From an uncultured Oscillospiraceae bacterium (GTDB lineage: Bacteria; Bacillota; Clostridia; Oscillospirales; Oscillospiraceae): a stretch of DNA of 64,000 nucleotides. The stretch lies in contig CAKULE010000006.1 of the NCBI GenBank assembly GCA_934667095.1, positions 1,720 to 65,719 on the forward strand, read 5' to 3'. Shown here one piece after another: positions 17,323-49,618 of this stretch. Position 1 is the stretch's first letter; every line of letters begins with the position of its first letter. The position numbers were made by a program, and so were the translations under genes. The notes under the pieces are model-generated. The model did no database searches. It was not told where the DNA came from and was given only the letters and a program-made list of their open reading frames with translations.

Positions 17323-17414
17323 GCGGAAGTACCCAAGAGGCCGAAGGGGCTCCCCTGCTAAGGGAGTAGGCGTCTAAACAGCGCGCGAGGGTTCAAATCC
17401 CTCCTTCCGCGCCA
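17323..17414 (+). tRNA. tRNA-Ser (anticodon GCU); its 3' end is the prophage attachment core
   Basis: Acceptor GCGGAAG/CTTCCGC, anticodon stem CTCCC/GGGAG with loop CTGCTAA, long variable arm, T-arm GAGGG-TTCAAAT-CCCTC, encoded CCA. Confidence 0.9.
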
Positions 17415-17416
17415 AA
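17388..17416 (+). repeat. attL core (29-bp direct repeat)
   Basis: AGGGTTCAAATCCCTCCTTCCGCGCCAAA, identical to 49590-49618. Confidence 0.85.
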
Positions 17417-17545: not shown

Positions 17546-18598
17546 CTATTGCTGGGGCTCACCTTGGGTAGCCTCGGCAATTTTTTTGTTGATGGCTTCG
17601 GCGGTCTTCTGCCTTCGGACAGCGAGGATATGGGTGTAGGTGTCATTTGTCATGGCGGCTGTTGAGTGTCCCAGCAGGTATTGCCGGTCCTTGAGGTCGA
17701 GGCCGCTGTCCAGCAGGATGGTCGCATAGCTGTGGCGCAGTTGATGGGCAGTGCAGTGGATGCCGGTGTCTCTGGCATAGTGCTTCCAGCGCATTTCATA
17801 TTCTCCCTCACCATAGGGTGTCAGCCCTCCATCAGAGGAAAACAGGAAGGACTCCCGCCCCAGCTTGCGGGGGAGCTTGTCAGCCAGCGGATCAAGAATC
17901 GGCACCGTGCGCACTCCGCTCTCGGTTTTGGGGGCTTTGATCTTCGGTTTGCGGTTCTCGTAGTATACCGACTTTCTCACATAGATCTCCCGCTCCCGCA
18001 GGTTGATGTCCTTTCCTTGTATGGCAAGGGCCTCCCCCTTGCGCAGGCCGGTATAGAGAAGAAAAAAGGGAAGCAGCCACGTGTCTGCGTGCTCCCGGAT
18101 GCGTTGAATGTCCTCATCCGAAGCCGGCTGCCGGTATGACTTTTTCAAATCCCTTGGGATGGTAACCTCGGCACAGGGATTCAGGCTGATGTCTCCATGC
18201 TCCACGGCCCAACGGCAGATCATGTTGATCATCTGGCGCTGGGTAATCACGGTTTTCTTTGCTCGCCCCGGCGCAAACTTATCGATATAGGCCTTGATCT
18301 GTGGCGGCGTAATGCTGCGGATGGGGAGCCTGCCAAAGTGCTCCACAGCACGGTCATAGGCCGCATTATAGCTGCGCAGGGTGTTGGGGGCCAGCTTGGG
18401 AAACCGATCATTGCAGAAGTCCCGTGCCACGGCTGCAAAATCCCGGCCGCGCTGGACGTCCTCCCGATAAGCAATCATTTTGCGCTCCACCTCGGCATCA
18501 GTCGCGCCACGGAATGCTACACGCTTCCCGTTGATGACACGGATCGCCTCATGCAGACCATCGGGGCGGACGTAGTAGCGGGCCTTTCTTTTTCCCAT
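17546..18598 (-). CDS. int: tyrosine-type site-specific integrase
   Basis: RBS AGGAGGGA upstream of ATG at 18598 (MGKRKARYYVRPDG). C-terminal catalytic region HQLRHSYATILL...LLGHSTAAMTNDTYTHI. Confidence 0.9.
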   Translation of the reverse strand: MGKRKARYYVRPDGLHEAIRVINGKRVAFRGATDAEVERKMIAYREDVQRGRDFAAVARDFCNDRFPKLAPNTLRSYNAAYDRAVEHFGRLPIRSITPPQIKAYIDKFAPGRAKKTVITQRQMINMICRWAVEHGDISLNPCAEVTIPRDLKKSYRQPASDEDIQRIREHADTWLLPFFLLYTGLRKGEALAIQGKDINLREREIYVRKSVYYENRKPKIKAPKTESGVRTVPILDPLADKLPRKLGRESFLFSSDGGLTPYGEGEYEMRWKHYARDTGIHCTAHQLRHSYATILLDSGLDLKDRQYLLGHSTAAMTNDTYTHILAVRRQKTAEAINKKIAEATQGEPQQ

Positions 18599-18612
18599 GG
18601 TATCCCTCCTCC

Positions 18613-18636
18613 AAATCCGCAAACGCATGCGGATTT
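18613..18636. repeat. 24-bp palindromic motif, copy 1 (AAATCCGCA-N6-TGCGGATTT)
   Basis: AAATCCGCAAACGCATGCGGATTT, 15 nt upstream of the int start codon. Confidence 0.8.
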
Positions 18637-18670
18637 GCGCACAAATGTTCGATTCAGCGTTCTTTTTTAA

Positions 18671-18697
18671 CCTCCCCCGAAGCCGGGGGAGGTTTTT
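18671..18697 (+). terminator. GC hairpin + T5 between palindrome copies 1 and 2 (plus-sense terminator)
   Basis: CCTCCCCC-GAAGCC-GGGGGAGG followed by TTTTT. In minus sense only UU follows the hairpin. Confidence 0.45.
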
Positions 18698-18698
18698 C

Positions 18699-18722
18699 AA
18701 ATCCGCAGACGTTTGCGGATTT
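18699..18722. repeat. 24-bp palindromic motif, copy 2
   Basis: AAATCCGCAGACGTTTGCGGATTT. Same 9-bp arms as copy 1, different 6-nt spacer. Confidence 0.8.
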
Positions 18723-18730
18723 CAGAAATT

Positions 18731-19147
18731 TCAATGCTCGAGTGTCTGTCCTTCGTAGAGAAGAAGGAGGGCACGGAGCGGATCGAGAAAGTCGCCGCAG
18801 ATCTGCCGTGCGATGGCGGCGGCAGTGGCTTCATCATAAACATGCGAGGTCAAGTTGCGGGCGGTGAGGATATTGTTCCAGACCTCGCTGTCCTTGATCA
18901 CGCCGGCGGAAAAGGCTTCCTTTAGGATACCCCGAGGCGACGCAATGGAAAGCACCATGCCCTGGTCCTCCAGGTATTCCTTGACAGACTTCCAGGCCAG
19001 CTCCACGGTGAACTCGAAGCGCTGGATGAGCCCGTCCCGATACAGGGAATCCTCCGGGGCCTGCTGATAGCGGGCGACGGCCTCCTCCAGTTGGGCGAGG
19101 GCGTGCTTGTAATTACTGATCTTTTGCAGCATAGAGGACCACACCAT
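18731..19147 (-). CDS. HEPN-domain protein (HI0074-type nucleotidyltransferase substrate-binding subunit), putative toxin of an MNT/HEPN pair
   Basis: RFEFTVELAWKSVKEYL and R-x4-H motif ARNLTSHVY. Alternative start ATG 19132. Overlaps the upstream MNT gene. Confidence 0.8.
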   Translation of the reverse strand: MVWSSMLQKISNYKHALAQLEEAVARYQQAPEDSLYRDGLIQRFEFTVELAWKSVKEYLEDQGMVLSIASPRGILKEAFSAGVIKDSEVWNNILTARNLTSHVYDEATAAAIARQICGDFLDPLRALLLLYEGQTLEH

Positions 19148-19400
19148 CCTTTTCGATATTATGCAGGAACGCGGGAGCCATGTCGGTCGAGATATGGACG
19201 ATGTCCAGCTTCAGCAGGGTGGGCAGTTCCTCCGCCTCCAGCCAGAAGGCCCCGCGCTCCGCCTCCGGCATACCGTACACGGCAAGATCGACATCGCTCT
19301 GAGCGTGGAAATCGCCCCGGGCCCGGGAGCCAAAGAGCACAAGCCGCCGGGCGCCGTGCCGCTGCGCCAGCGCGGCAAGCTGATGATAGAGCCGTTCCAT
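19113..19400 (-). CDS. minimal nucleotidyltransferase (MNT), putative antitoxin partner
   Basis: Start MERLYHQLAAL at 19400. Pol-beta-type motif LFGSRARGDFHAQSDVDLAV. Confidence 0.8.
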   Translation of the reverse strand: MERLYHQLAALAQRHGARRLVLFGSRARGDFHAQSDVDLAVYGMPEAERGAFWLEAEELPTLLKLDIVHISTDMAPAFLHNIEKDGVVLYAAKDQ

Positions 19401-19413
19401 CGCCGCGCACCTC

Positions 19414-20169
19414 TCAATACTTCGCCCGGAGCTCAACCACCTTGCCGATGACTCGGACAGGGAGGCGCTCCACGTCGGCACAACTGTAAAACTGGACATC
19501 ATGCACCGGGTTGGTCGGGATCAGCGAGATCCCGTCCGGCCCGTATTTTATTTTCTTCACGGTGGCGCTGTCGCCGTTGACCAACACCACCACGGTGTCG
19601 CCGGTCTCGGCGGAGTCCTGTTTACGGACGATGACCACGTCGCCGTCCCGCATGCGGGGCTCCATGCTGTCGCCCTTGATCCGCAGGCCGAAGAACTCGC
19701 CGGTAGCGGCCAGGGCCCCATCGATCTCCTCGTAGTCCACCACGTCGGTGATGGCTTCGATGGGGATACCGGCGGCCACGTCGCCCAGTACAGGGATACG
19801 GGAAGCGGTGACTAAGTCTAATACGTGCTGGTAGCCATGAGTTAATGCGTAAATTGTGTCGTGGCTCAACGCAAGTGATTCCTGCAGTGAGGATATGCGT
19901 CGCTGAGAATCTAATAGGGCCGCAGATTGTGGGCTTCTATACTTTTCGCCGGAACCAAAAAGAAGCCAACTTGGCGATGTGTTGAGTGCGGTGCAGAGAA
20001 GGCCGATTTTCCCAGCAAAAGAATTACTTTTCCCCTTTTTCCAGTCAGTGACTGTTTGAGGAGAAACTTGCATCATATCCGCAAAATCTTTTTGCGTGAT
20101 ACCAGAATCATCTAGCAAAGTGAAAATGCGATCTCGCATGGAATCGTATTCTACGTTAAAATCGCTCAA
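19414..20169 (-). CDS. CI/LexA-like phage repressor (XRE HTH + S24 peptidase domain)
   Basis: TTG start with AGGAGG RBS. HTH ITQKDFADMMQVSPQTVTDWKKG. S24 block RIKGDSMEPRMRDGDVVIV...VKKI. Confidence 0.9.
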   Translation of the reverse strand: MSDFNVEYDSMRDRIFTLLDDSGITQKDFADMMQVSPQTVTDWKKGKSNSFAGKIGLLCTALNTSPSWLLFGSGEKYRSPQSAALLDSQRRISSLQESLALSHDTIYALTHGYQHVLDLVTASRIPVLGDVAAGIPIEAITDVVDYEEIDGALAATGEFFGLRIKGDSMEPRMRDGDVVIVRKQDSAETGDTVVVLVNGDSATVKKIKYGPDGISLIPTNPVHDVQFYSCADVERLPVRVIGKVVELRAKY

Positions 20170-20198: not shown

Positions 20199-20227
20199 CC
20201 ATAAATCAGAAAAAATCTGATTTATGG
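20199..20227. promoter_or_regulatory. operator O1: 29-bp palindrome in the cI/cro intergenic region
   Basis: CCATAAATCAGA-AAAAA-TCTGATTTATGG (12-bp arms). Confidence 0.65.
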
Positions 20228-20256
20228 TTGACAATCAGAAAAAATCTGATTAGTAT
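20228..20256 (+). promoter_or_regulatory. rightward early promoter (PR-like) overlapped by operator O2
   Basis: TTGACA (20228-20233), 17-nt spacer, TAGTAT (20251-20256). The spacer contains AATCAGAAAAAATCTGATT (20233-20251), a second copy of the O1 core. Confidence 0.6.
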
Positions 20257-21251: not shown

Positions 21252-21364
21252 AAAAGCCCCCGGCGAATGCGGGTACATTCACCAGGGGCTCGGCAGTACA
21301 AGTACTACCATGAGAACAAATTTAGTTTACCATATTCGGCGGAAAATTGCAAGGGGGTGAGGGC

Positions 21365-22219
21365 GTGGCGCAGATCAGAATCGAAAAATCCCAGGGTTTC
21401 ACGGCGCTGGCCAACGAGGTCATCCAGAATCCGAAGCTGTCCTTAAAGGCGAAGGGGCTGTTGGCCTATATGCTGTCCGTCCCGGCAGACTGGGACTATT
21501 CCATATCCGGCCTGTCCGCCAAGTGCAGGGAGGGCAAGGCCGCCATCCGCAGCGCCATCGGGGAGCTGATGGAGGCCGGCCACGTGACCCGCAGCGCCGT
21601 CCGCAAGGCCACCGGCACCATGGACGGCTACGAGTACGTGGTCTACGAACTGCCAAGACCGTCGTGCGAAAATCGGACGACGGCAGAGGAGGAGCCACCG
21701 TCGTTCGGTTTTCCGACGTCGGATTTTCCGTCGTCGGAAAATCGAACGGAACAAAATAAGAACTTAACAAAGAAGAACTTAACAGATACCCCCTATAGTC
21801 CCCCAGCGGGGGACGGGCCTGCCGAAGATCTACATACTCCGGAGCCGCCGAAGCAGGACGCCCCAGAGCCGCCGGAGCCCAAGCCCCGGAAGGGGCGACT
21901 GAAGGACTACAAGCCGGAGTGGTTCAATGCCTTCTGGGCCATCTATCCCCGGAAGGACGGGAAACAGGCGGCCTATAAGTCGTGGTGCAAACTCAAGCCA
22001 GACCGGCCCACCTGCCGGGCCATGGCGGCGGGGCTGGAGCGGGCCCGAACCTCCCGGCAGTGGACGAAGGACAACGGGGAGTTCATTCCCCACGCCTCCA
22101 CATGGATCAACGGCCGTATGTGGGAGGACGAGGGTGTGGACCTGTCGCTGCTGCCGGCGGCGGCTGATTCCGGCGGCCGGTGCTGGGCCCCGGACCCGGA
22201 GGTGATCCCCGATGGATGA
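21365..22219 (+). CDS. phage replication initiator / replisome organizer (N-terminal winged-helix, low-complexity linker, conserved C-terminal domain)
   Basis: GFTALANEVIQNPKLSLKAKGLLAYMLSVPADWDYSISGL... is a typical phage replication wHTH. C-terminal YPRKDGKQAAYKSWCKL...ASTWINGRMWEDE. Lies directly upstream of DnaB. Start GTG 21365 (or TTG 21347). Confidence 0.7.
   Translation: MAQIRIEKSQGFTALANEVIQNPKLSLKAKGLLAYMLSVPADWDYSISGLSAKCREGKAAIRSAIGELMEAGHVTRSAVRKATGTMDGYEYVVYELPRPSCENRTTAEEEPPSFGFPTSDFPSSENRTEQNKNLTKKNLTDTPYSPPAGDGPAEDLHTPEPPKQDAPEPPEPKPRKGRLKDYKPEWFNAFWAIYPRKDGKQAAYKSWCKLKPDRPTCRAMAAGLERARTSRQWTKDNGEFIPHASTWINGRMWEDEGVDLSLLPAAADSGGRCWAPDPEVIPDG
21660..21790. repeat. iteron-like inverted/direct repeats inside the organizer gene (candidate phage ori)
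   Basis: Four CGGAAAAYC-type units in alternating orientation (21666-21683, 21706-21722, 21720-21737, 21735-21749), plus AAGAACTTAACA twice (21758-21769, 21773-21784) in an AT-rich stretch. Confidence 0.5.
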
Positions 22220-23615
22220 GGAACTGCGCCTTACCGGGGCCGTGGAGGCCCAGCAGTCTGTCATCGGCTCCATGCTCATCGACGACCGCTGTGTGGGCGT
22301 GGTGATGAGCAGTCTGACAGCAGAGGACTTTACCGACGGTCCCTGCCGGACGGCCTTCCGGGCCATCAAAAAGCAGTTCGTGGCGGACAGGCCGGTGGAC
22401 CCCATCGCCCTGCTGGACGCCGTGGGCGGTGGGGATCGCTATGTCCAGTGGATCAAAGAGGTCATGGAGATCACCCCCACCGCCGCCAATGTGGAGTATT
22501 ACGCCGGGATCGTCCGCAAGTCGGCGGCCCTGTGTCGGCTTCGGGAATTGGCGGGCAATGTGGTCCAGTGCGGAGATTTGGAAACGGCCTCGGCTCTGGT
22601 GCGGGAGATGTCGGCCGCCACCTCGGCGGCCAGCCGTGTGTCCCGCATGACGGCCCGGGAGCTGGCGGAGGACTTCCTACGCCGGTTGACCGACCAGAAA
22701 AAGCCGGAGTACCTCCCCTGGGGGATACCGGCGGCGGACCAGAAGGTCTACGCCGAACTGGGGGACCTGTGCCTGCTGGGCGGGTACGCCTCGGCGGGCA
22801 AGACCCTGTTGTCCCTCCAGATGGCCCTGGCCCAGGCCAAGCGGTACCGGGTGGGTTACTACACCCTGGAGACCCGGCCGGAGAAGATGGCCGACCGCAT
22901 GTTCGCCCACCTGGCCAAGCTGCCCATGACGGCTATCAAGCGCCGGGAGATCACGGAGGGCGATCTGCGCCGGGCGGCGGACGCAGCGGATCTGTTTACC
23001 AAGACCTGCCCCATTGACTTCGTCCGGGCGGCGGGCCTGTCCGTGGAGGACATCGCCGCCGACGCCATCGCCCACCGCTACCAGGTGATCTACGTGGACT
23101 ATCTCCAGCTCATCGAGGTGCCCGGAATCCGGGCAGGGGACCGCTATGGAGCCGTGACGGCGGTGAGCCGGGGGCTGAAGCTGTTCGCCCAGTCCCACAA
23201 CGTGGCGGTGGTGGCGCTGGCCCAGCTCTCCCGGCCCCAGCCAGCGGGCGGGAAGAATGGGCAGGCCCTCATCCCGCCGTCCATGCACTCTTTCCGGGAG
23301 TCCGGCCAGATCGAGCAGGACGCCGACGTGGCCTTTCTGCTGTGGGCAGAGGATGACAACGACAACCGTTCTCGCCGGAGTTTCAAGCTGGGCAAGAACA
23401 AGGAGGGCGAGAAGTTTCTCCGCCATCTGGATTTTGATGGCTCCACCCAGACTATGGCAGAGGTGGAGGAATCGGAGCGCAGCGCCGTGGCCGCTCACTA
23501 TTCCGAGGTGGGCAAAGCGGTGAAGCAACGCAACCGAGCGGCTGCACAGGTTCCGGGCTTTACAGAACTGCCGGAGGACAGCGACTGTCCCTTCCCGGCG
23601 AGGGCGCCCTCATGA
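22212..23615 (+). CDS. DnaB-type replicative DNA helicase
   Basis: 467 aa. N-terminal AQQSVIGSMLID...DFTD...AIKKQF pattern. Walker A GGYASAGKTLLSLQMAL. RecA-like C-terminal domain FRESGQIEQDADV. Confidence 0.9.
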   Translation: MDEELRLTGAVEAQQSVIGSMLIDDRCVGVVMSSLTAEDFTDGPCRTAFRAIKKQFVADRPVDPIALLDAVGGGDRYVQWIKEVMEITPTAANVEYYAGIVRKSAALCRLRELAGNVVQCGDLETASALVREMSAATSAASRVSRMTARELAEDFLRRLTDQKKPEYLPWGIPAADQKVYAELGDLCLLGGYASAGKTLLSLQMALAQAKRYRVGYYTLETRPEKMADRMFAHLAKLPMTAIKRREITEGDLRRAADAADLFTKTCPIDFVRAAGLSVEDIAADAIAHRYQVIYVDYLQLIEVPGIRAGDRYGAVTAVSRGLKLFAQSHNVAVVALAQLSRPQPAGGKNGQALIPPSMHSFRESGQIEQDADVAFLLWAEDDNDNRSRRSFKLGKNKEGEKFLRHLDFDGSTQTMAEVEESERSAVAAHYSEVGKAVKQRNRAAAQVPGFTELPEDSDCPFPARAPS

Positions 23616-24003: not shown

Positions 24004-24789
24004 ATGAGAACATTTGCAGTTGTCAACATGAAGGGCGGGGTGGGCAAGACTACCACTGCCATCAATCTGGCGTGTATTCTGGCCACCGACTACCAGCAGC
24101 GGGTACTGCTGGTGGACGCCGATGCCCAGTCCAACGCCACCCGCTGCCTGCTGGATGCCGATGAGACTCGCTCCGGGCTGGCCGCCCTGCTCACCGGCCT
24201 TGCCAGCTATGACGAGCTGATCGAGCCTGTGGCGGAGATCGAGGGGTTGGATATGCTCCCAGCCACCAATGAGCTGTGGCGGGTAGACTTCGCCTGCGTC
24301 ACCGGGGACGGCTCCGGAGTGTTCCGTGCCCTGCGGGGTCTGCGGGACGCCGTGGAGGAGGACGACAGCTATGACGTGATGGTCATTGACTGCCCGCCCA
24401 GCTTCTCCGCCGCCTGCGTGTCCGCCATCGTGGCCAGCGACAGCATCATCATCCCAGTGCTGCCCGACGCCTTCTCCGCCGCCGGCATGGCGGACCTGGT
24501 GGAGCAGATCGACAGCGCCCGGCGGTATCAGCCCTCCATCCGGGTGTCCGGAATCCTCATCAACCAGTGGCACCGGGCCGACGTGGTGGAGGACGCCACC
24601 GAGTACCTCCGGGCAGCCTCCCCCGTGCCCGTGTTCGACACGGTGATCCGCCGGACGGATCGGGTGCTGGAATCCACTTGGGCCCAGCAGCCCGTGATGA
24701 TCTGGAGCCCCCGGTCCTCCGCCGCCCGGGACTACCGGGCCTGGGTCAGGGAACTGGTGACCAAGGAGGCGGTGCTGGGTGGCCGGTAA
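24004..24789 (+). CDS. parA: ParA/Soj-family partition ATPase
   Basis: Deviant Walker A VNMKGGVGKTTTAINLA. VLLVDADAQSNAT. VIDCPPS. RBS GAGGAGG upstream. Confidence 0.9.
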   Translation: MRTFAVVNMKGGVGKTTTAINLACILATDYQQRVLLVDADAQSNATRCLLDADETRSGLAALLTGLASYDELIEPVAEIEGLDMLPATNELWRVDFACVTGDGSGVFRALRGLRDAVEEDDSYDVMVIDCPPSFSAACVSAIVASDSIIIPVLPDAFSAAGMADLVEQIDSARRYQPSIRVSGILINQWHRADVVEDATEYLRAASPVPVFDTVIRRTDRVLESTWAQQPVMIWSPRSSAARDYRAWVRELVTKEAVLGGR

Positions 24790-25735
24790 GTTTGACTTGG
24801 GGGCCATCCTTGCCGGGCAGGAGGTCAAGACCCCACCCAAGCCCCGGGACATCGCCGCCATCACGGCGGAGATCATCGAGAACAAGCGTCGTGGCGGAGA
24901 GGCCGTCCTCACCATCGGCCGGGCCCTCAACGAGGCCAAGGCCCTGCTGAGCCACGGGGAGTGGCTGCCGTGGCTGACAGAGCAGGCAGAGCTGTCGGAG
25001 CGGGCAGCCCAGAACTTCATGCGGCTGGCCCGGGAGTGGTCAAATCCGCAAACGCTTGCGGATTTGGGCAGCAGCAAGGCCCTCGCCCTGCTGGCCCTGC
25101 CGGAGGAGGAGCGGGAGCAGTTTGTAGAGGCCCATCCGGTGGCTGACATGAGCACCCGGGAGCTGAAGCAGGCCATCGCGGACCGTGAGGCGGCGCTGGC
25201 CGAGAAGGCTGCCGCCAACAAGGAGCGGGACAAGCTGGCGGAGCGGGTGGCCGCCCTCCAGTCGGCCCAGGAGCTGGCCGCCGATCTCACCGCCCAAAAG
25301 GACGCCGAGATCGTCCAGCTTCGGGCGGAGCTGAAGGCCACCCAGGAGCGGCCGGTGGACGTGGCCGTCATGGAGGTGGACCAGACCGCTCTGGATGCCG
25401 CCCGGGCCGAAGCGGCCGCCGCAGCGCAGGCCAAGTTGGACAAGGCCCTGGATGGCAAGAAACAGGCGGAGGAGAAGCGCAAGGCACTGGAGGAGGAATT
25501 GACGGCTCTCCGGGCGCAGCTGGCGGACTCTGCCCGGGAGGACAAGCGGGCGCAGATCGCGGCGGACAAGGACCTTGCGGTATTTGAGGTGACCTTCGCT
25601 CAAACCCAGGAGGACGTGAATCGGCTCCACGGTCTGCTCATGAAGGTGCGCAGCCGAGGGGATGAGACCTTGGCGGAGAAGCTCCGCCGGGCCCTGCTGG
25701 CCCTGGCGGACAGCGTGAGGGGGTGCGCAGGATGA
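24779..25735 (+). CDS. DUF3102-like protein with long coiled coil, candidate ParB-like/centromere-binding partner of ParA
   Basis: GTG start after AAGGAGG. IGRALNEAKALLSHGEWLPWLTEQAELSERAAQNFMRLARE matches my recollection of DUF3102. The Ala/Glu/Lys-rich middle is predicted coiled coil. Contains palindrome copy 3. Confidence 0.7.
   Translation: MAGKFDLGAILAGQEVKTPPKPRDIAAITAEIIENKRRGGEAVLTIGRALNEAKALLSHGEWLPWLTEQAELSERAAQNFMRLAREWSNPQTLADLGSSKALALLALPEEEREQFVEAHPVADMSTRELKQAIADREAALAEKAAANKERDKLAERVAALQSAQELAADLTAQKDAEIVQLRAELKATQERPVDVAVMEVDQTALDAARAEAAAAAQAKLDKALDGKKQAEEKRKALEEELTALRAQLADSAREDKRAQIAADKDLAVFEVTFAQTQEDVNRLHGLLMKVRSRGDETLAEKLRRALLALADSVRGCAG
25042..25065. repeat. 24-bp palindromic motif, copy 3 (inside the DUF3102-like gene)
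   Basis: AAATCCGCAAACGCTTGCGGATTT; encodes SNPQTLADL. Confidence 0.8.
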
Positions 25736-26067
25736 GCGTACTGGCCGAAGTGATCGCCGCCATCGAGGCCCAGCAGCCGAAGGAACGCTCCGCCGTCTGG
25801 ATGGTGGGGGAGCAGATGAAGGACATCTGCCGGGCCGACCCGGCCGCCGCCGAGCTCCTGCTGGCGGATCTGACCCACAACCCGGACATGACGCTGGCGG
25901 CCGCCGAGAAAAAGATCGCCGCCCGGGCCAAGGCTAACAAGGTGGGCAACTGCGGCTGCGTCACCCCGGCGGAGGCGGAGGAGATCCTCCGGGAGTTCTT
26001 CGGCCTTGGAGCCCCGGGCACTCCGGCGGAACGCCCCAAGGTCCTGGACCTGGCGGACTTTCTGTGA
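25732..26067 (+). CDS. PcfK-like / AcrIIA9-family-like small protein (candidate anti-CRISPR)
   Basis: ATGA overlap with the upstream stop. ...TLAAAEKKIAARAKANKVGNCGCVTPAEAEEILREFFGLG resembles the conserved C-terminal block I recall for the AcrIIA9/PcfK-like family. Followed by a PcfJ-like gene. Confidence 0.55.
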   Translation: MSVLAEVIAAIEAQQPKERSAVWMVGEQMKDICRADPAAAELLLADLTHNPDMTLAAAEKKIAARAKANKVGNCGCVTPAEAEEILREFFGLGAPGTPAERPKVLDLADFL

Positions 26068-26079
26068 GGGGGCGGGCTG

Positions 26080-27915
26080 ATGGATACCGAGTGGAAAGCT
26101 CTGGCCGGCCGGCTGCCGACGCAGCCCTGCGGCGACTTGATCCAGGACATCATGAGCGCCGTGTACGACGGTGAGGAGCTGGGCGAGAATCTGATTCTCT
26201 ACCACCGGGAATCGGTGGAGCTGGCGGACGAAGGCCTGATGCTTCAGACCATGGCCCCGGAGGACTGGGCCCGCTATGATGCCTCCCGCCGCCGGCGCTG
26301 GGGCGCCCGGTGTACCTGCTCCTTCTGCGGCGAAGACTTCCTCGCCGGGTATGTCCGGCGGGAGGGTCTGACGGGGATCGCCCTCTTTGCAGACGATGAC
26401 GGCAACACCCAGCCCGGCTTTGCTCTGGCGGAGGAGGGTGGGGCAGAGTACTTTGACGGAGAGCCCGTCCAGTGCCCCAGCTGCCGGAATGAGGGCATGC
26501 TGACCCGCCGGAGCGAGCTGCGGCGGGGGAGGACACACCAGGTCATGCAGGCGGAAACGGTAGACGTGGACGGGTACACGGCGGTGATGTTCTGGCTGGT
26601 GTCCCGCTATCAAGACGATGCCGGCGTGGACCGGACCCTCTGCCTGCCCAGCGCCGCCCTGCTGGTGGACAAGGCGGGCAGGCTGCGGCGCTTCCGGGCC
26701 GTCCGGCAGGGCGGCGAGGTAACGGACGTGGAGTGGCTGCCCTGCGCCCGCACCCGGGACCCCATGCAGGTGGCCTATTACGACCATGGCTCAGTCAACT
26801 GCCGGAAGGTGGGAGGCTGGACCTGCGTTTACGGTCCGGAGCTGGCCGGGCACACCGGAGAGAAAACCGCTCTGGACAAGTACATCGGCGCGGGCGGGCA
26901 CTGGCCCGGGGCATACCTCCACGTGTGGCAGAAGCACCCGCAGGTGGAGAACCTCATACGGCAGGGGTTTGCCGGTGCCGTCCAGCAGACCATTGATGAG
27001 TACCTGGACCGCGTTGCCTACTTCGCCGACCTGCGGGATGCCCCGGCCATCGACTGGGTGGACTGGACTCAGCGCCAGCCCCACAAAATGCTGGGCATGA
27101 ACCGGGAGGCATTCCGGGCCATCCGGGAGAGGAGCAGATGGGGCGGACAGGACGCGGCCTGCTGGGCCCGATACCGGGCGGCTCTGCCCGGGGCGGATGC
27201 CCTGGAATATGACCGCTGCCGTCAGGTGCTGGGCCGCGCGGAGGTGGAAAAGCTGCTGGATGCCCTGGCCGAGGGCTGGCCCGACCTGCGCCCCGCCCGG
27301 GTGACCCGCTATCTGGAGTGCCACGGCCCGGCGGCGGACGGCGTCCAGATGCTGCTGGACTACCGCCGGATGCTGCGGGACGCGGGATTGGCGGAGACGG
27401 AGGAGACCCTCTGGCCCCGGGATCTGGCCGCCGCCCACGACCGGGTGGCCCAGATGTGGACCGGGCGGAGCTCCGCAGAGTATTCCTTGGGTTTCACGTC
27501 GGTGTATTTGTCGCTCCGAGACTTGGAGTGGACGGACGGCGACCTGTGCGTCGTGGTGCCGAGGTCGGAGCAGGATCTGATCGAGGAGGGCCGTGTGCTG
27601 CGGCACTGCGTGGGCACTTATGGACGGCCCCATTGCTCTGGTAAGCCCATCTTCTTTATCCGCCACCGCCGCCGGCCGGAGCGCAGCTACTACACCCTCA
27701 ATATCGACCTCACGGGCAAGCTGCCCCGGGAGATCCAGCTGCACGGCTACGGCAACGAGCGCCACGGCCCCGCAAAGCAGTACAGCCATTCCATCCCGCA
27801 GACGGTCCGGGACTTCTGCGACCGCTGGCAGCGGGAGGTGCTCCTGCCGTGGTTCATGGCCCGGCGGGAGTGGAAGAGTAAGCCCGTCGGCCAGAGCAGA
27901 CGCCGGGCGGGGTAA
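26080..27915 (+). CDS. PcfJ-like domain protein with N-terminal Zn-ribbon-like cysteines
   Basis: 611 aa. C-terminal LIEEGRVLRHCVGTYGRPHCSGKPIFFIRHRRRPERSYYTLNIDL matches my recollection of the PcfJ-like core. CTCSFCG...CPSCRNEG near the N-terminus. Confidence 0.6.
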   Translation: MDTEWKALAGRLPTQPCGDLIQDIMSAVYDGEELGENLILYHRESVELADEGLMLQTMAPEDWARYDASRRRRWGARCTCSFCGEDFLAGYVRREGLTGIALFADDDGNTQPGFALAEEGGAEYFDGEPVQCPSCRNEGMLTRRSELRRGRTHQVMQAETVDVDGYTAVMFWLVSRYQDDAGVDRTLCLPSAALLVDKAGRLRRFRAVRQGGEVTDVEWLPCARTRDPMQVAYYDHGSVNCRKVGGWTCVYGPELAGHTGEKTALDKYIGAGGHWPGAYLHVWQKHPQVENLIRQGFAGAVQQTIDEYLDRVAYFADLRDAPAIDWVDWTQRQPHKMLGMNREAFRAIRERSRWGGQDAACWARYRAALPGADALEYDRCRQVLGRAEVEKLLDALAEGWPDLRPARVTRYLECHGPAADGVQMLLDYRRMLRDAGLAETEETLWPRDLAAAHDRVAQMWTGRSSAEYSLGFTSVYLSLRDLEWTDGDLCVVVPRSEQDLIEEGRVLRHCVGTYGRPHCSGKPIFFIRHRRRPERSYYTLNIDLTGKLPREIQLHGYGNERHGPAKQYSHSIPQTVRDFCDRWQREVLLPWFMARREWKSKPVGQSRRRAG

Positions 27916-27958: not shown

Positions 27959-28366
27959 TCAGTTGGCGGCACCGTGCAGATAGCCGTTCAGCGCGTCGGT
28001 CAGTACCTGGGAGAAGTTCACGTGGGCCTCCTCCGCTTCCCGGTTGAGCCAGGCGGGGATGGTGAGGGTCTTTTTCACTACGCGGTTGTTGACCCGGTCT
28101 CGGACGGAGGGCATAAACACCTCCACCATGGTCAAGACGCCGCCCTCCTCGGGGTGCAGATCCTCGATAGGGGAAGGGACGGGGATCGGGTCGCCGTCTT
28201 GCTCCATGCCGTACAGGTGCAGGCCCATGGCCTCCTTGGCGTTGCGGAATGCCTCCTCGGTGGTGGAAGCGCAGGGCAGGCAGCCCGGCAGGTCGGGGAA
28301 CTCAATCGAGATCCCATCCGGGTCATAGTAGAAGATGGCGGGGTAGCTGTAGTAGTTCGGAAGCAT
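27959..28366 (-). CDS. hicB: HicB-family antitoxin
   Basis: YPAIFYYDPDGISIEFPDLPGCLPCASTTEEAFRNAKEAMGLHL is the HicB N-terminal fold. C-terminal ribbon-helix-helix-like KKTLTIPAWLNREAE. Confidence 0.85.
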   Translation of the reverse strand: MLPNYYSYPAIFYYDPDGISIEFPDLPGCLPCASTTEEAFRNAKEAMGLHLYGMEQDGDPIPVPSPIEDLHPEEGGVLTMVEVFMPSVRDRVNNRVVKKTLTIPAWLNREAEEAHVNFSQVLTDALNGYLHGAAN

Positions 28367-28402
28367 ATAGAAAACTCCTTTCGGTTGGGCGAGGGGCGGG
28401 GC

Positions 28403-28600
28403 TTACTCGAATTTCAGCCCCGCCTGGTCCCCAATGGATTTCAGTGTTCGCTTTGGGATGTCTTTGACTGGATGTGTGACTGTTACCTTCCCGGGTTTTG
28501 AGGGGTGCTTGAACTGGTGATGATCTCCGGTACAGTGGACCTCGTACCAGCCATCTTCGGCCAGGATCTTGAGCACCTCTCGGGACGAATAGCTTTTCAC
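28403..28600 (-). CDS. hicA: HicA-family mRNA interferase toxin
   Basis: 65 aa. SSREVLKILAEDGWYEVHCTGDHHQFKHPSKPGKVTVTHP is a typical HicA. Confidence 0.85.
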   Translation of the reverse strand: MKSYSSREVLKILAEDGWYEVHCTGDHHQFKHPSKPGKVTVTHPVKDIPKRTLKSIGDQAGLKFE

Positions 28601-30403: not shown

Positions 30404-31210
30404 ATGTCAAAGACCATCAAGCACATTCATGCGGGCCTCCTACATGTGGAGGTCATCGGCAGCGTCCCGGACCAATGCGGCCGCCGGCCCCGGTCCGGGC
30501 GCAGCCGCCCAACCAGCGCCGCCCAGGCGTTTTACAATCTCAAATGCTCCTGGCGGGAGCTGGAGCTGGTGTTGGCCGCCAACTTCGGCGCCCAGGACTA
30601 CGTGGTGACCCTTACCTATGACGAGGGCCACCTCCCGGAGAGCAAGGCCCAGGCGGCCAAGCTCATGCAGCGGTTCTTCCGCCGCCTGCGGCAGGTGCGG
30701 CGTTCCCGGGGGCAGGAGCTGCGGTACGTCTACGTCACCGAGGGCTTCCATGCTGCCCAGGCCGACGAGTACTTCGGGGATGACCGGGGGTTGGAGGACC
30801 GGCGGATCCACCACCACATGGTGATCAATGCCGCCGGACCCGAAGACTGGGAGGAACTGCGGAGCCTGTGGCCTTACGGAGGATACCTGCGGTTCGAGCC
30901 GTTGGACGTCCACTACTATCAAGAGCTGGCCAAGTACCTCACTAAGGAGGCCCGGGAGTTCGGCCGGGCCAAGCCGGGGGAGCGCACCTGGCGGGCCTCC
31001 CGGAATCTGGCCAAGTATGAGGTGGAGTACATCGAGATCCCCAGCGACAGCGTGACACTTTCGCCGCCAGCGGGAGCGGTGGATTATCGCCAGTTCTCGG
31101 AGCACAACCCGTACGGCTTTGCCGACTGCATCGGGGCCCGGTACCTGCTGTTCGACACGCCGTCGGCCCCGGTCTATAGCTACACCAGAGGGCGGAGAAG
31201 AACGGAATGA
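30404..31210 (+). CDS. HUH-superfamily rolling-circle Rep-like endonuclease
   Basis: Three ordered motifs: YVVTLTYD (motif I-like), RIHHHMVIN (HUH) and ELAKYLTKE (catalytic Tyr). 268 aa. Confidence 0.6.
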   Translation: MSKTIKHIHAGLLHVEVIGSVPDQCGRRPRSGRSRPTSAAQAFYNLKCSWRELELVLAANFGAQDYVVTLTYDEGHLPESKAQAAKLMQRFFRRLRQVRRSRGQELRYVYVTEGFHAAQADEYFGDDRGLEDRRIHHHMVINAAGPEDWEELRSLWPYGGYLRFEPLDVHYYQELAKYLTKEAREFGRAKPGERTWRASRNLAKYEVEYIEIPSDSVTLSPPAGAVDYRQFSEHNPYGFADCIGARYLLFDTPSAPVYSYTRGRRRTE

Positions 31211-46132: not shown

Positions 46133-47083
46133 ATGGCGGTCAATCACGTCATCATCAACGGTGAGACGTCGCTTGACCTGCGGGCGGACACCGTAACGCC
46201 TGATGTCTTAGGTGCTGGCATTACTGCGCATGATGCGGCAGGAAGAGTGATTGTAGGAACCGGTGCCGTGGAGAGCGCCATCATATCCCGGACGATTGCC
46301 GGAAATTACAGAAACCCTGCGGTCGCCAAGATAGGATCTTACGCCTTTAAGGGCTGTCAGACGCTTGCAGAGGTCGATTTCCCGCAGGCGGCTGCGGTGG
46401 AAGCCTATGCCTTTGAAGGCTGTGCCGCTTTGGAGCGTGTCGATTTAGATTCAGCGGTCACGATTGGATCTTATGCGTTTCGGGGCTGCGCCGCATTGGC
46501 GGAACTCAATATTCCTGCGGCGGGTACGGTTGCCTCTTGTGCATTTCAGAATTGTGCCGCGCTGACAGAAGTGAATATTTCCGCAGCAGAGCAGGTGGAT
46601 GCCTATGCCTTCAAAAACTGCTCTTCACTGGAGTATGTCAATTTGGACTCGGTGCTCAGGATTGGGGCGTATGCATTTCAGAACTGCATTTCTCTGATAT
46701 CGATGAACCTTCCCGCAGCGGAACAGATCAGCGTCGATGCCTTCTATGGCTGCTCCTCGCTGGCCAGGATCGACCTGAACGCCGCGCAGGCTATTGACGA
46801 CGGAGCTTTTGATGGCTGCTCGATTAAGACGCTGGTTCTTTGGGGCCCGTTGGTGTGTTCCCTCAACCAGAACGACTTGAGCGATGCGGTCATTTACGTC
46901 CCGCTGGCTTTGCTGGAGCAGTACAAAGCAGCATCGGGCTGGGCCGACTATGCGCTGCGGATCAATCCTATCGAGTGCGCCACGTGGGAGAAGCTGGAGC
47001 CCGTTTATGATTCGTGGGCAAGCGCGGCAAGCAAGACGTGGGCGGAACTCAGAGCCCAGATGCCTGCGGTAGAGCCGCTCTGA
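46133..47083 (+). CDS. BspA-type leucine-rich-repeat protein, tail fibre/receptor-binding candidate 2
   Basis: Eight or more ~23-aa repeats of the form IGSYAFxGCxxLxxVxLxxA. The N-terminal 45 aa are paralogous to the previous gene. Confidence 0.7.
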   Translation: MAVNHVIINGETSLDLRADTVTPDVLGAGITAHDAAGRVIVGTGAVESAIISRTIAGNYRNPAVAKIGSYAFKGCQTLAEVDFPQAAAVEAYAFEGCAALERVDLDSAVTIGSYAFRGCAALAELNIPAAGTVASCAFQNCAALTEVNISAAEQVDAYAFKNCSSLEYVNLDSVLRIGAYAFQNCISLISMNLPAAEQISVDAFYGCSSLARIDLNAAQAIDDGAFDGCSIKTLVLWGPLVCSLNQNDLSDAVIYVPLALLEQYKAASGWADYALRINPIECATWEKLEPVYDSWASAASKTWAELRAQMPAVEPL

Positions 47084-49589: not shown

Positions 49590-49618
49590 AGGGTTCAAAT
49601 CCCTCCTTCCGCGCCAAA
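49590..49618 (+). repeat. attR core (orphan 3' end of tRNA-Ser(GCU))
   Basis: Identical 29-mer to 17388-17416. No upstream tRNA body. Confidence 0.85.

Follow-up and report, generated by a model that had tools for sequence, protein, structure and literature searches.

A ParA-linked DUF3102 protein with a predicted ParB-type fold and a palindrome within its own gene in an integrated Oscillospiraceae prophage

The DNA analyzed here is a stretch of 64,000 nucleotides (the window) from an uncultured Oscillospiraceae bacterium (assembly GCA_934667095.1, contig CAKULE010000006.1, positions 1,720 to 65,719), which carries an integrated prophage whose parA gene overlaps a gene for a protein of the DUF3102 family. 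We found that the N-terminal domain of this protein models as the helix-turn-helix (HTH) DNA-binding domain of Spo0J, ParB, and Noc, that a 24-bp palindrome is written into the DUF3102 gene, that two residues of the predicted recognition helix covary with the arms of this palindrome, and that a short N-terminal peptide of the protein accompanies ParA. The fold assignment, the site, the covariation of protein and site, and the co-occurrence of ParA and peptide were all computed here. Together, these data support the view that the pair has the anatomy of a ParA and centromere-binding-protein module. With moderate confidence, we propose that it forms a minimal ParABS-like system of ParA, adaptor, and site that is made with the early replication operon and would act on extrachromosomal phage DNA. 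Structure prediction and comparative genomics are the basis of all functional statements, and kinship among loci inflates some counts; checks at the level of sequence clusters and of distant homologues hold despite this kinship.

The DUF3102 protein, its in-gene palindrome, and the residues that covary with it

The DUF3102 gene begins within parA (Table 1), and a Shine-Dalgarno sequence, AAGGAGG (24763-24769), is situated inside parA 9 nt before the GTG at 24779. The resulting N-terminus, MAGKFDLG, agrees with those of homologues P0003 and P0005, which supports the assigned start. Overlaps between parA and the DUF3102 gene recur in relatives, and the partner gene lies directly downstream of parA, as in type I partition loci. 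The Pfam DUF3102 model (PF11300) matched residues 27 to 136 at 94.5 bits against a gathering cutoff of 24.4 (E = 7.9e-27), and phrog_15609 matched the protein over its entire length. In an alignment of 32 homologues, three parts were conserved (residues 23-136, 192-201, and 263-318) with variable coiled coil between them. The full-length AlphaFold model (predicted local distance difference test [pLDDT], 79) shows a helical head from which a long antiparallel coiled-coil hairpin extends, and a sequence search against solved structures returned a prefoldin-like coil-turn-coil match to the hairpin region. Residues D263, D265, L266, F269, N281, H284, and G285, among others, were invariant in the C-terminal domain across the 32 homologues, and we infer that this domain serves dimerization or partner binding. 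A preliminary description of this DNA had reported translational coupling of parA to a 318-residue protein with a DUF3102-like N-terminal domain, both of which were upheld by the overlap, the internal Shine-Dalgarno sequence, and the Pfam match. The roughly 200 residues of Ala/Glu/Lys coiled coil described there are indeed a coiled-coil hairpin; they are not a plain coil, as the alignment and the AlphaFold model also place in this region a conserved tip and the helical C-terminal domain.

The N-terminal domain was also modeled alone with AlphaFold2 (AF2), giving a pLDDT of 90. When this isolated domain was compared with the Protein Data Bank (PDB) using Foldseek, the best nine matches were Spo0J/ParB structures (among them 1vz0 and 4umk, the latter with parS), with probabilities of 0.75 to 0.99 and template modeling (TM) scores of 0.56 to 0.61. 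Noc DNA-binding domains came next in the ranking (6y93, TM score 0.69/0.71). In BFVD, phage ParB/Spo0J proteins ranked straight after DUF3102 proteins (TM score 0.63 to 0.73), and weak Pfam HTH_ParB matches were seen in 3 of 15 family members (best E = 0.0077). The full-length model returned only coiled-coil noise from the PDB. A ParB/Srx-like CTPase domain, with its GxxRxxA box, is absent: about 22 residues precede the HTH domain, and no ParBc Pfam match was obtained. Because this CTPase domain is absent, the DUF3102 protein appears to be like the DNA-binding core of ParB and not a strict member of the ParB family. The preliminary description had found no recognizable ParB/HTH-nuclease fold, which is accurate for the CTPase/nuclease-like domain and has to be revised for the HTH, as the N-domain models as that of Spo0J, ParB, and Noc. 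The central ParB-type HTH is thus seen at the level of predicted fold.

A repeat search over the whole prophage identified three near-palindromic copies of AAATCCGCA-N6-TGCGGATTT in the window, where 0 were expected. The copy inside the DUF3102 gene encodes S88-NPQTLADL-G97, immediately after the predicted recognition helix, and uses codons that are rare for the phage (TCA, 3%; CAA, 8%; CTT, 7%; TTG, 8%), such that the product of synonymous frequencies over the palindrome is 2.9e-8. Of 158 related genes, 131 have an AATC-N14-GATT palindrome at these codons, in 30 sequence variants, with its symmetry kept by compensatory changes that are both amino-acid-changing and synonymous; for example, a change from Pro CCG to Arg CGG is paired with a change from Ala GCG to GCC in the opposite arm. 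Among 72 distinct sites, 92.6% of cells pair compared to 80.3% in shuffles, and 105 double changes were counted compared to 39.9 ± 4.4, a number reached by 0 of 500 shuffles. Register-shifted controls gave at most 16 double changes. Scanning of the first 86 sequences yielded 94 palindromes of the DUF3102 type, against approximately 0.4 after shuffling.

The palindrome was also found at the homologous codons of distant family members, where its symmetry was scored out of 12 paired positions; as a baseline, about 3 of every 10,000 window positions carry a 24-mer that reaches 10/12 or more. Scores of 12/12 were obtained for gp01 of Bacillus phage IEBH (AAATTCCACGACGTCGTGGAATTT, the sole copy in that genome) and for a Lactobacillus brevis plasmid (AAATACGACGACGTCGTCGTATTT), followed by homologues from Alicyclobacillus (11/12), Paenibacillus, Cytobacillus, and Methylobacterium (10/12 each), Lactobacillus plantarum and Bacillus thuringiensis (9/12 each), and Clostridium butyricum (8/12, weak). 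A freshwater phage homologue had no palindrome at these codons. Both IEBH and the Lactobacillus plasmid have the in-gene copy only.

Two further roles were considered for the palindromes. Operators of the repressor or Cro were rejected as the main reading: the operators of the immunity region are a different palindrome, AAATCAGA-N5-TCTGATTT, and the in-gene site accompanies DUF3102 into replicons with unrelated regulators. Intrinsic terminators are countered by the A/U-rich base of the stem, the lack of a U tract, and the presence of a separate GC-rich hairpin beside the external copies.

Mutual information between protein and site was calculated for 98 unique N-domains, with the columns encoded by the site itself set aside. 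Residue 78 accounted for 0.82 of 0.98 bits at arm positions 5-6 and residue 79 for 1.31 of 1.83 bits at arm positions 7-8, and the next-best columns, adjacent ones included, reached at most about 0.5 bits. At residue 78, Q occurs with CCG, R with CGG, and T with (A/G)G; at residue 79, N occurs with CA, R with AC or CC, and K with AA or TCC. Distant homologues repeat this code, with Q-R accompanying CGAC in L. brevis and Alicyclobacillus and N-N accompanying CCAA in Cytobacillus and Paenibacillus. The sites do not vary in the outer AAATC/GATTT, and no strand bias was observed in G-T versus A-C mismatches. External and in-gene sites share the arm core in 14 of 25 distinct combinations, against 8.4 ± 2.1 by permutation (P = 0.01).

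Taken alone, symmetric covariation fits either a dimeric protein that co-evolves with its site or a hairpin. If the palindromes acted as RNA, single-stranded DNA, or cruciform hairpins, for example as elements of mRNA stability or translation or as processing sites, they would not be duplex sites for the DUF3102 HTH. Such a role would suit the self-complementarity of sites even where inner bases differ within one genome (L040, L062, and L090), the paired Pro-to-Arg and synonymous Ala changes, the clustering of mismatches in the central 4 to 6 nt as in a loop, the stability of the predicted RNA hairpins (−12.8 to −18.9 kcal/mol), and the position of the integrase-proximal copy, which abuts a Shine-Dalgarno sequence. 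The hairpin reading retains some weight because external copies in one genome can differ in class, yet each is self-complementary. A bare stem, however, does not require the invariant outer bases, many sites are perfectly palindromic through the center (GCGC, ACGT), and the covariation at residues 78 and 79, with its recurrence in distant homologues, is hard to explain by a hairpin. Hairpins therefore seem improbable to us, and direct readout of duplex DNA by the DUF3102 HTH is favored on account of the residue 78/79 covariation, the invariant outer AAATC/GATTT, and the absence of strand-biased mismatches.

ParA, the N-terminal peptide, and the expression of the pair

The translation of parA contains Walker A (MKGGVGKTT), Walker A' (LLVDADAQSN), and Walker B (VMVIDCPPS) motifs, and profile matches were obtained to Pfam AAA_31 (9.9e-38), Pfam CbiA (1.7e-21), and the PHROG ParA-like family (1e-57), in agreement with the deviant-Walker-A ParA that had been described. 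The closest solved relatives are a ParA (8ray, 1.9e-32) and Thermus thermophilus Soj (1wcv, 1.4e-30). Among 87 unique ParA orthologues adjoining DUF3102 genes, the Walker A, A', and B motifs are intact in 85, 86, and 81, respectively. By homology to the Soj/ParA structures, the protein may form an ATP-dependent dimer that binds nucleoid DNA nonspecifically.

Of 148 related loci that extend at least 1 kb upstream, 98 have ParA immediately before DUF3102. In the other 50 it is absent, and the upstream gene encodes DnaB, an SLT transglycosylase, an AAA ATPase, a DnaJ-domain protein, or PcfJ. The ParA-linked proteins begin with a peptide of the pattern M-(0-5 residues, usually with K or R)-[F/P/V]-[D/N/E]-[L/I/M]-[G/S/A]-x-x-[L/I/F], examples being MAGKFDLGAIL in the window and MGKPDLGALI, MLDLSGVL, MFDISRFA, and MKANLGRIV in relatives. 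A strict form of the motif was present in 77 of 98 ParA-linked and 6 of 50 ParA-less loci (77/21/6/44; Fisher P = 4e-15), and the 21 exceptions have N, E, or Q in place of D. When relaxed variants were read by eye, the peptide was seen in approximately 98 of 98 ParA-linked loci compared to 6 or 7 of 50 ParA-less loci; the relaxed pattern had overlooked seven ParA-linked loci in which the peptide is present by eye (e.g., MAFDISKY and MSKTDLGRLI). After collapse to 70%-identity clusters the counts were 11/1/0/9, three clusters being mixed (P = 3e-5). Where a clear motif does occur without ParA, at four loci, an SLT gene stands at the position of parA. Other ParA-less N-termini are unrelated or carry a Cys-rich extension. 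Overall, the N-terminus of DUF3102 seems to be an exchangeable adaptor module, and by analogy to the N-terminal peptides of ParB, ParG, and other adaptors we take the ParA-linked peptide to be a probable ParA contact.

Two side observations concern these N-termini. The Cys-rich extension (RCPLQAECERxCxFxxRELECxYY...) occurs at loci L013, L044, L059, L060, L064, and L070-L072 and in proteins P0018, P0030, and P0035. An SLT lytic-transglycosylase gene stands in the place of parA at L029, L030, L033, L111, and L159, four of which keep the ParA-type peptide; L030 has lost the peptide and retains a 100-bp parA remnant (76% identity), suggesting that parA was recently replaced by the SLT gene at these loci.

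The gap between the preceding open reading frame (ORF) and parA is 13 bp, and in relatives parA overlaps dnaB. An in silico consensus scan of the forward strand from the early promoter (20256) to position 26200 found no promoter-like site, and a search for local repeats in 600 bp around the module found no iteron-like centromere beside parA. As far as this consensus scan reaches, the autoregulated promoter of its own and the expression in the maintained state that belong to type I partition loci are missing. Because parA lacks a promoter-like site of its own and sits inside the early rightward operon behind cro-like and replication genes, parA and DUF3102 are probably silent in the integrated lysogen and expressed with the replication proteins when the repressor is off.

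This setting bears on classical plasmid-type partition, in which the module would segregate a stably extrachromosomal, low-copy prophage in the manner of P1 or N15. The triad of ParA, adaptor, and site is present, and DUF3102 genes occur in plasmid prophages (IEBH and Leptospira LE4) as well as in plasmids. IEBH, however, which carries Rep, has no ParA beside DUF3102 and uses a ParM-like partition protein instead; the window copy is an integrated one whose att repeats are intact and which has an integrase, and its module-bearing relatives are likewise integrated, next to recombinases; and parA sits without its own promoter in a repressed early operon. Since expression of the module is likely confined to times when the repressor is off and the replication proteins are made, partition in the lysogen is disfavored, and we give the plasmid-type reading little credence. 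The partition-type module of the preliminary description thus persists as an anatomy of ParA, adaptor, and candidate site, and its analogy to the P1 and N15 plasmid prophages is not supported.

External palindromes, the prophage, and the wider family

Both external copies of the palindrome are located upstream of the integrase gene (Table 1). In the sense of this gene, the order is the HepT stop codon, a palindrome, the GC-rich hairpin, a CGAACATTTGTG element, a palindrome, GGAGGAGGG, and the int ATG; CGAACATTTGTG resembles a Gram-positive LexA box. The ATG at 18599 is preceded by GGAGGAGGG-N5 on the minus strand, at 18597-18612. The longest ORF opens instead at TTG 18700, an extension that would span a palindrome and the terminator-like hairpin, and ATG 18599 is probably the true start. 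In relatives L094, L118, L119, L113, and L147, a LexA-like box lies within the spacer of a TTGACA-17-TATAxT promoter ahead of the recombinase, which suggests that recombinase expression may be under SOS control. Many relatives have a palindrome 0 to 110 bp upstream of serine or tyrosine recombinase genes, in the composite order palindrome, hairpin, promoter whose spacer contains a LexA-like box, Shine-Dalgarno sequence, and recombinase. In L090 (560-2500), five copies each follow a terminator and lie about 60 bp upstream of a promoter-like TTGCGC-17-TATTCT. These copies belong to four to five tandem cassettes of approximately 385 bp, with three palindrome classes, each cassette containing a terminator, palindrome, promoter-like site, structured leader, and ORF for a 28-residue hydrophobic, Lys-tailed peptide (MVTYSDLIQTGILVVGIIGLFMMANKKK). 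The array looks like one of type I toxins, and single cassettes of this kind occur in L025, L040, and L062. The positions of the external sites suggest a regulatory or looping role besides any centromere role, as with KorB of RK2 or the dispersed centromeres of N15. Exact-pattern scans of IMG/VR for external-type sites gave few informative contigs. Separately, L178, L184, L191, and L193 carry palindromes of two classes (AATCGGCAATCGTCTGCCGATT and AATCCGAAATCGCTTGCGGATT) 37 bp apart, with no DUF3102 gene within the fetched stretch.

KorB of RK2 (IncP) is a member of the ParB family with an HTH. The palindromic operators that it binds are spread over the replicon, and it is both the partner of a ParA (IncC) and a transcriptional regulator, and works with KorA. 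The DUF3102 protein could likewise be a regulator or architectural protein, using its palindromes as an autoregulatory roadblock and for gating of int and of moron or toxin promoters, without positioning any genome; ParA would then merely modulate it, or act in a Soj-like manner on replication initiation beside Rep and DnaB. The external sites do occupy regulatory positions: the window copy ends 1 nt before the int Shine-Dalgarno sequence, relatives have the order palindrome, terminator, LexA-box promoter, int, and all five L090 copies are about 60 bp from their promoter-like sites. That one third of the family lacks ParA, that the DUF3102 gene of Methylobacterium plasmid pD is translationally coupled to an integrase, and that ParA is embedded between DnaB and the remainder of the replication module point the same way. 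A purely regulatory protein nevertheless leaves unexplained why the N-terminal peptide comes and goes with ParA and why a nucleoid-type Soj ATPase is retained with intact motifs; moreover, the distance between palindrome and promoter varies widely, and IEBH and the Lactobacillus plasmid manage with the in-gene copy. We consider a KorB-like role rather unlikely, albeit the strongest of the alternatives.

A more speculative possibility, and an improbable one, is that the palindromes form a specificity-coded signaling network between related phages, in which foreign-class sites would sense the early DUF3102 protein of a relative that is entering or already resident and switch on toxins or the recombinase. 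Every DUF3102 gene would then conceivably carry its own cognate site so that recombination cannot separate protein from site. Sites of other classes would stand before integrase genes and tandem small hydrophobic-peptide cassettes of the type I toxin kind, such as the five of L090 with their three site classes, with superinfection exclusion or cross-induction as the equally conjectural outcome.

The prophage itself measures 32.2 kb, is bounded by the 29-bp direct repeat AGGGTTCAAATCCCTCCTTCCGCGCCAAA, and is integrated into tRNA-Ser(gct); with att repeats at both ends and the integrase adjoining attL, it is the tRNA-targeting prophage with a tyrosine integrase that had been described. Leftward genes at its left end encode the tyrosine integrase, a HepT/MNT pair, and an S24/LexA-like repressor. 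Between the repressor and cro-like genes lie the early promoter and its two operators, presumably the control point of the operon that holds parA and DUF3102; the operators share the outer AAATC/GATTT with the DUF3102 palindrome, and their inner bases differ. Rightward from there, the tightly packed order is cro-like gene, second HTH gene, DnaD/HTH_36-type initiator, DnaB, two small ORFs, parA, DUF3102, a 114-residue ORF, and the PcfJ gene.

Other features of the prophage were noted in passing. The replication module has its own DnaB, yet no recognizable primase. Direct and inverted repeats inside the initiator gene (CGTCGTxCGxAAAATCGxACG and a 22-nt inverted repeat with a 3-nt spacer) likely constitute a replication origin of the type found within initiator genes. 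Two CxxC pairs lie close to the N-terminus of the PcfJ-domain protein (CTCSFCGEDF ... CPSCRNEG). Toxin-antitoxin pairs are situated next to int (HepT-like/MNT nucleotidyltransferase) and right after the PcfJ gene (HicA/HicB), a REP_ORF2-G2P-domain gene lies just ahead of the terminase genes and keeps this place in most relatives, and three direct repeats fall within a late-region gene whose product is a repeat-containing protein, possibly of receptor-binding or leucine-rich type (Table 1).

Table 1. Positions of features in the 64,000-nucleotide window
Feature	Position	Strand	Remarks
attL core	17388-17416		3' end of tRNA-Ser(gct)
Tyrosine integrase (int)	17546-18599	-	Pfam Phage_integrase; adjoins attL
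External palindrome copy 1	18613-18636	.	Ends 1 nt before integrase Shine-Dalgarno
CGAACATTTGT(G/T) element	18640-18660	-	Upstream of int; resembles Gram-positive LexA (Cheo) box
External palindrome copy 2	18699-18722	.	Between HepT stop codon and GC-rich terminator-like hairpin (18672-18689)
HepT-like/MNT pair	18731-19502	-	Toxin-antitoxin
Early rightward promoter	20228-20256		TTGACA-17-TAGTAT; flanked by two operators AAATCAGA-N5-TCTGATTT, at 20201-20253; whole region 20201-20256
Replication initiator	21347-22219	+	DnaD/HTH_36 type
Repeats in initiator gene	21658-21748		Likely origin
DnaB	22212-23615	+	
parA	24004-24789	+	261 aa; Soj-type deviant Walker A ATPase without N-terminal HTH
DUF3102 gene	24779-25735	+	GTG start; 318 aa; 11-nt overlap with parA
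N-terminal peptide MAGKFDLGAILAGQ...	24779-24838	+	Codons 1-20; proposed ParA-contact/ATPase-stimulating peptide
DUF3102 domain, residues 23-136	24845-25186	+	Predicted ParB/Spo0J/Noc-type HTH DNA-binding domain
Predicted recognition helix S73-W87 (SERAAQNFMRLAREW)	24995-25039	+	Q78 and N79, proposed base-reading residues
24-bp palindrome AAATCCGCAAACGCTTGCGGATTT	25042-25065	.	Inside DUF3102 gene, codes S88-G97; proposed cognate binding/centromere-like site
Antiparallel coiled-coil hairpin, about residues 126-262	25154-25564	+	AF2 helices 126-190 and 202-262
Hairpin tip PVDVAVMEVDQ	25352-25381	+	Conserved in alignment (family PVDVAVMxVDQ, residues 192-201)
Helical C-terminal domain, residues 263-318	25565-25732	+	Conserved; pLDDT 87-91
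114-aa ORF (phrog_36399)	25723-26067	+	Overlaps DUF3102 stop codon
PcfJ-domain protein	26080-27915	+	611 aa; Pfam PcfJ 3.6e-22
HicA/HicB pair	27959-28600	-	Toxin-antitoxin; strand opposite to early operon
REP_ORF2-G2P-domain gene	30404-31210		Pfam 9.7e-12
Three 94-nt direct repeats	46396-46687		Spacing 66 and 132 nt; within gene 46133-47083
attR copy of 29-bp repeat	49590-49618		

DUF3102 is a widespread family. A phmmer search with the full-length protein against a 50%-identity library matched 8141 clusters at E ≤ 1e-3, a count that may take in coiled-coil-only matches, and 1701 at E ≤ 1e-10. Close relatives belong to Oscillospiraceae of the gut (Flavonifractor, Dysosmobacter, Oscillibacter, Intestinimonas, and Lawsonibacter), where a block of Rep, DnaB, ParA, DUF3102, small ORF, PcfJ, and in some cases single-stranded DNA-binding protein (SSB) recurs in temperate siphovirus-like prophages with either a serine recombinase or a tyrosine integrase. 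ParA alongside an integrase, which the preliminary description had treated as an oddity, is therefore normal for this group of phages. Of the checks suggested there, the co-occurrence survey showed the pairing with integrases to be common in phages of Oscillospiraceae, and the profile hidden Markov model (HMM) search returned the DUF3102 match, with weak HTH_ParB matches in some family members; an obligate partnership with ParA did not emerge, as about one third of DUF3102 relatives lack it. Our literature search found no published function for DUF3102, as had been stated at the outset, and nothing usable on PcfJ/PcfK or on ParA in integrating gut phages.

PcfJ adjoins DUF3102 in 94 of 106 loci with enough flanking sequence, and the phrog_36399 ORF is directly downstream of DUF3102 in 43 of the 106. 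The two genes are likewise neighbors on a Cytobacillus plasmid and in a C. butyricum prophage, where PcfJ stands between a weakly PcfK-like gene of the AcrIIA9 family, ahead of it, and SSB, behind it. On mobilizable Lactobacillus plasmids, DUF3102 is the first gene of operons. These associations are what would be expected if DUF3102, a PcfK-like small protein, PcfJ, and SSB served establishment or anti-defense, protecting or priming incoming mobile DNA, with ParA as a lineage-specific add-on. We know of no activity for PcfJ, however, and sequence searches against solved structures found no relative of it; a PADLOC scan for defense systems gave P-loop and coiled-coil noise with no defense or anti-defense model; and neither the cognate palindrome nor the ParA-linked peptide is explained by such a role, which we regard as very improbable.

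A second, independent link between DUF3102 and a recombinase was seen on plasmid pD of Methylobacterium sp. FF17 (L195, 1593-4663). There the DUF3102 gene, whose in-gene palindrome scores 10/12, runs into the start of a gene for a site-specific integrase and is divergent from a pair of genes for ParA and a ribbon-helix-helix protein.

Proposed mechanism and comparison with known systems

In the ParABS-like system that we favor, a DUF3102 dimer, held by its antiparallel coiled coil and C-terminal domain, would bind AAATCCGCA-N6-TGCGGATTT through its ParB/Noc-type HTH, thereby marking its own coding sequence and the two sites upstream of the integrase gene. The first approximately 15 residues (a basic residue, then F-D-L-G-x-x-L) would contact and stimulate the Soj-type ParA. 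The early promoter, under control of the repressor, would drive the pair along with Rep, DnaB, and PcfJ, and the pair would act while phage DNA is extrachromosomal, either after infection and before integration or after excision during replication, when nucleoid-bound ParA-ATP could position or distribute DUF3102-marked phage genomes. The integrase-proximal sites may let the protein loop to int or gate its expression, and in relatives without ParA the protein-site core would act alone, probably together with PcfJ. DNA binding, ATPase stimulation, expression timing, and the positioning function are what we infer from the computed results.

Several observations weigh against this proposal. Foldseek E-values to ParB were weak (0.3 to 3), and profile HMM and phmmer searches against PDB sequences matched DUF3102 to tropomyosin- or prefoldin-like coils only and to no ParB; because such searches match no ParB, any relationship to it must be remote. 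The codons of the helix and the site are 30 to 45 nt apart in one gene, so some of the covariation could be linkage, although neighboring variable columns show little covariation with the site. About nine loci have external sites of another specificity class than the in-gene site (each self-complementary at L033, L037, L040, L043, L062, and L090), and genome L090 alone has three classes, which is a poor fit to strict cognate recognition and also fits selection for hairpins. PcfJ is a more constant companion of DUF3102 than ParA is. Finally, the palindrome is kept in 33 of 50 ParA-less DUF3102 genes, and the protein-site core must therefore have a job that is independent of ParA.

The proposal offers a testable function for an orphan family that is very large and spans phages, plasmids, and prophages. 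The protein would be an HTH protein of ParB type that carries its binding site in its coding sequence and recognizes it by a two-residue code that can be read, and in one phage lineage its modular N-terminus would plug it into ParA. If true, a CTPase-less variant of ParB would join the known ParA adaptors, integrating temperate phages would be using ParA-based positioning in their extrachromosomal phase, and DUF3102 would provide a clean case of a protein and a site made inseparable in mosaic genomes. It would also supply a simple annotation rule for thousands of gut-phage genomes.

Among known systems, Soj/Spo0J/parS of Bacillus subtilis and T. thermophilus is alike in its Soj-type ParA without an N-terminal HTH, in the HTH fold of the partner (predicted here) with a short ParA-linked N-terminal peptide, and in a palindromic site within the partner's own gene, as B. 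subtilis has a parS inside spo0J. It is unlike in that DUF3102 lacks the ParB/Srx CTPase domain, and CTP-dependent clamping and sliding are not expected of it; the palindrome is 24 bp compared to the 16-bp parS; dimerization is predicted to proceed through an antiparallel coiled coil of approximately 140 residues and a new C-terminal domain; and the in-gene site lies at fixed codons family-wide, in a module inside a phage early replication operon. The dispersed operators of KorB/IncC resemble the int- and promoter-proximal DUF3102 palindromes, whereas KorB has the N-terminal CTPase domain of ParB, and the likeness of DUF3102 to it, by description only, is one of HTH fold class.

SopAB of N15 and ParAB of P1 are also a phage-borne ParA with a centromere-binding protein, and the centromere repeats of N15 are dispersed in the genome near regulatory regions. 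These are type Ia systems with a large ParA and a canonical ParB, expressed in the lysogen to segregate a nonintegrating prophage, whereas the window phage integrates and its module is apparently under early-operon control. In ParF/ParG, delta/omega, and McdA/McdB, a small ParA is paired with an adaptor other than ParB, and a flexible peptide at the N-terminus of the adaptor stimulates the ATPase; some such adaptors, like McdB, have coiled coils. These type Ib and other adaptors are ribbon-helix-helix or non-DNA-binding proteins, unlike DUF3102 with its predicted ParB-type HTH and gene-internal site. The closest counterpart on the side of the adaptor, IEBH gp01, is 36% identical in the DUF3102 domain and has its 24-bp palindrome at the same codons, and differs in having neither an adjacent ParA nor a ParA-type N-terminal peptide, in a genome with a single site and no integrase. 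Four elements are new to our knowledge: the assignment of a ParB-type fold, the palindrome inside the gene throughout the family, the two-residue code, and the peptide that accompanies ParA. The combination of a ParA, an adaptor, and a site is of a known kind, of which the DUF3102 system is a variant and not a new category.

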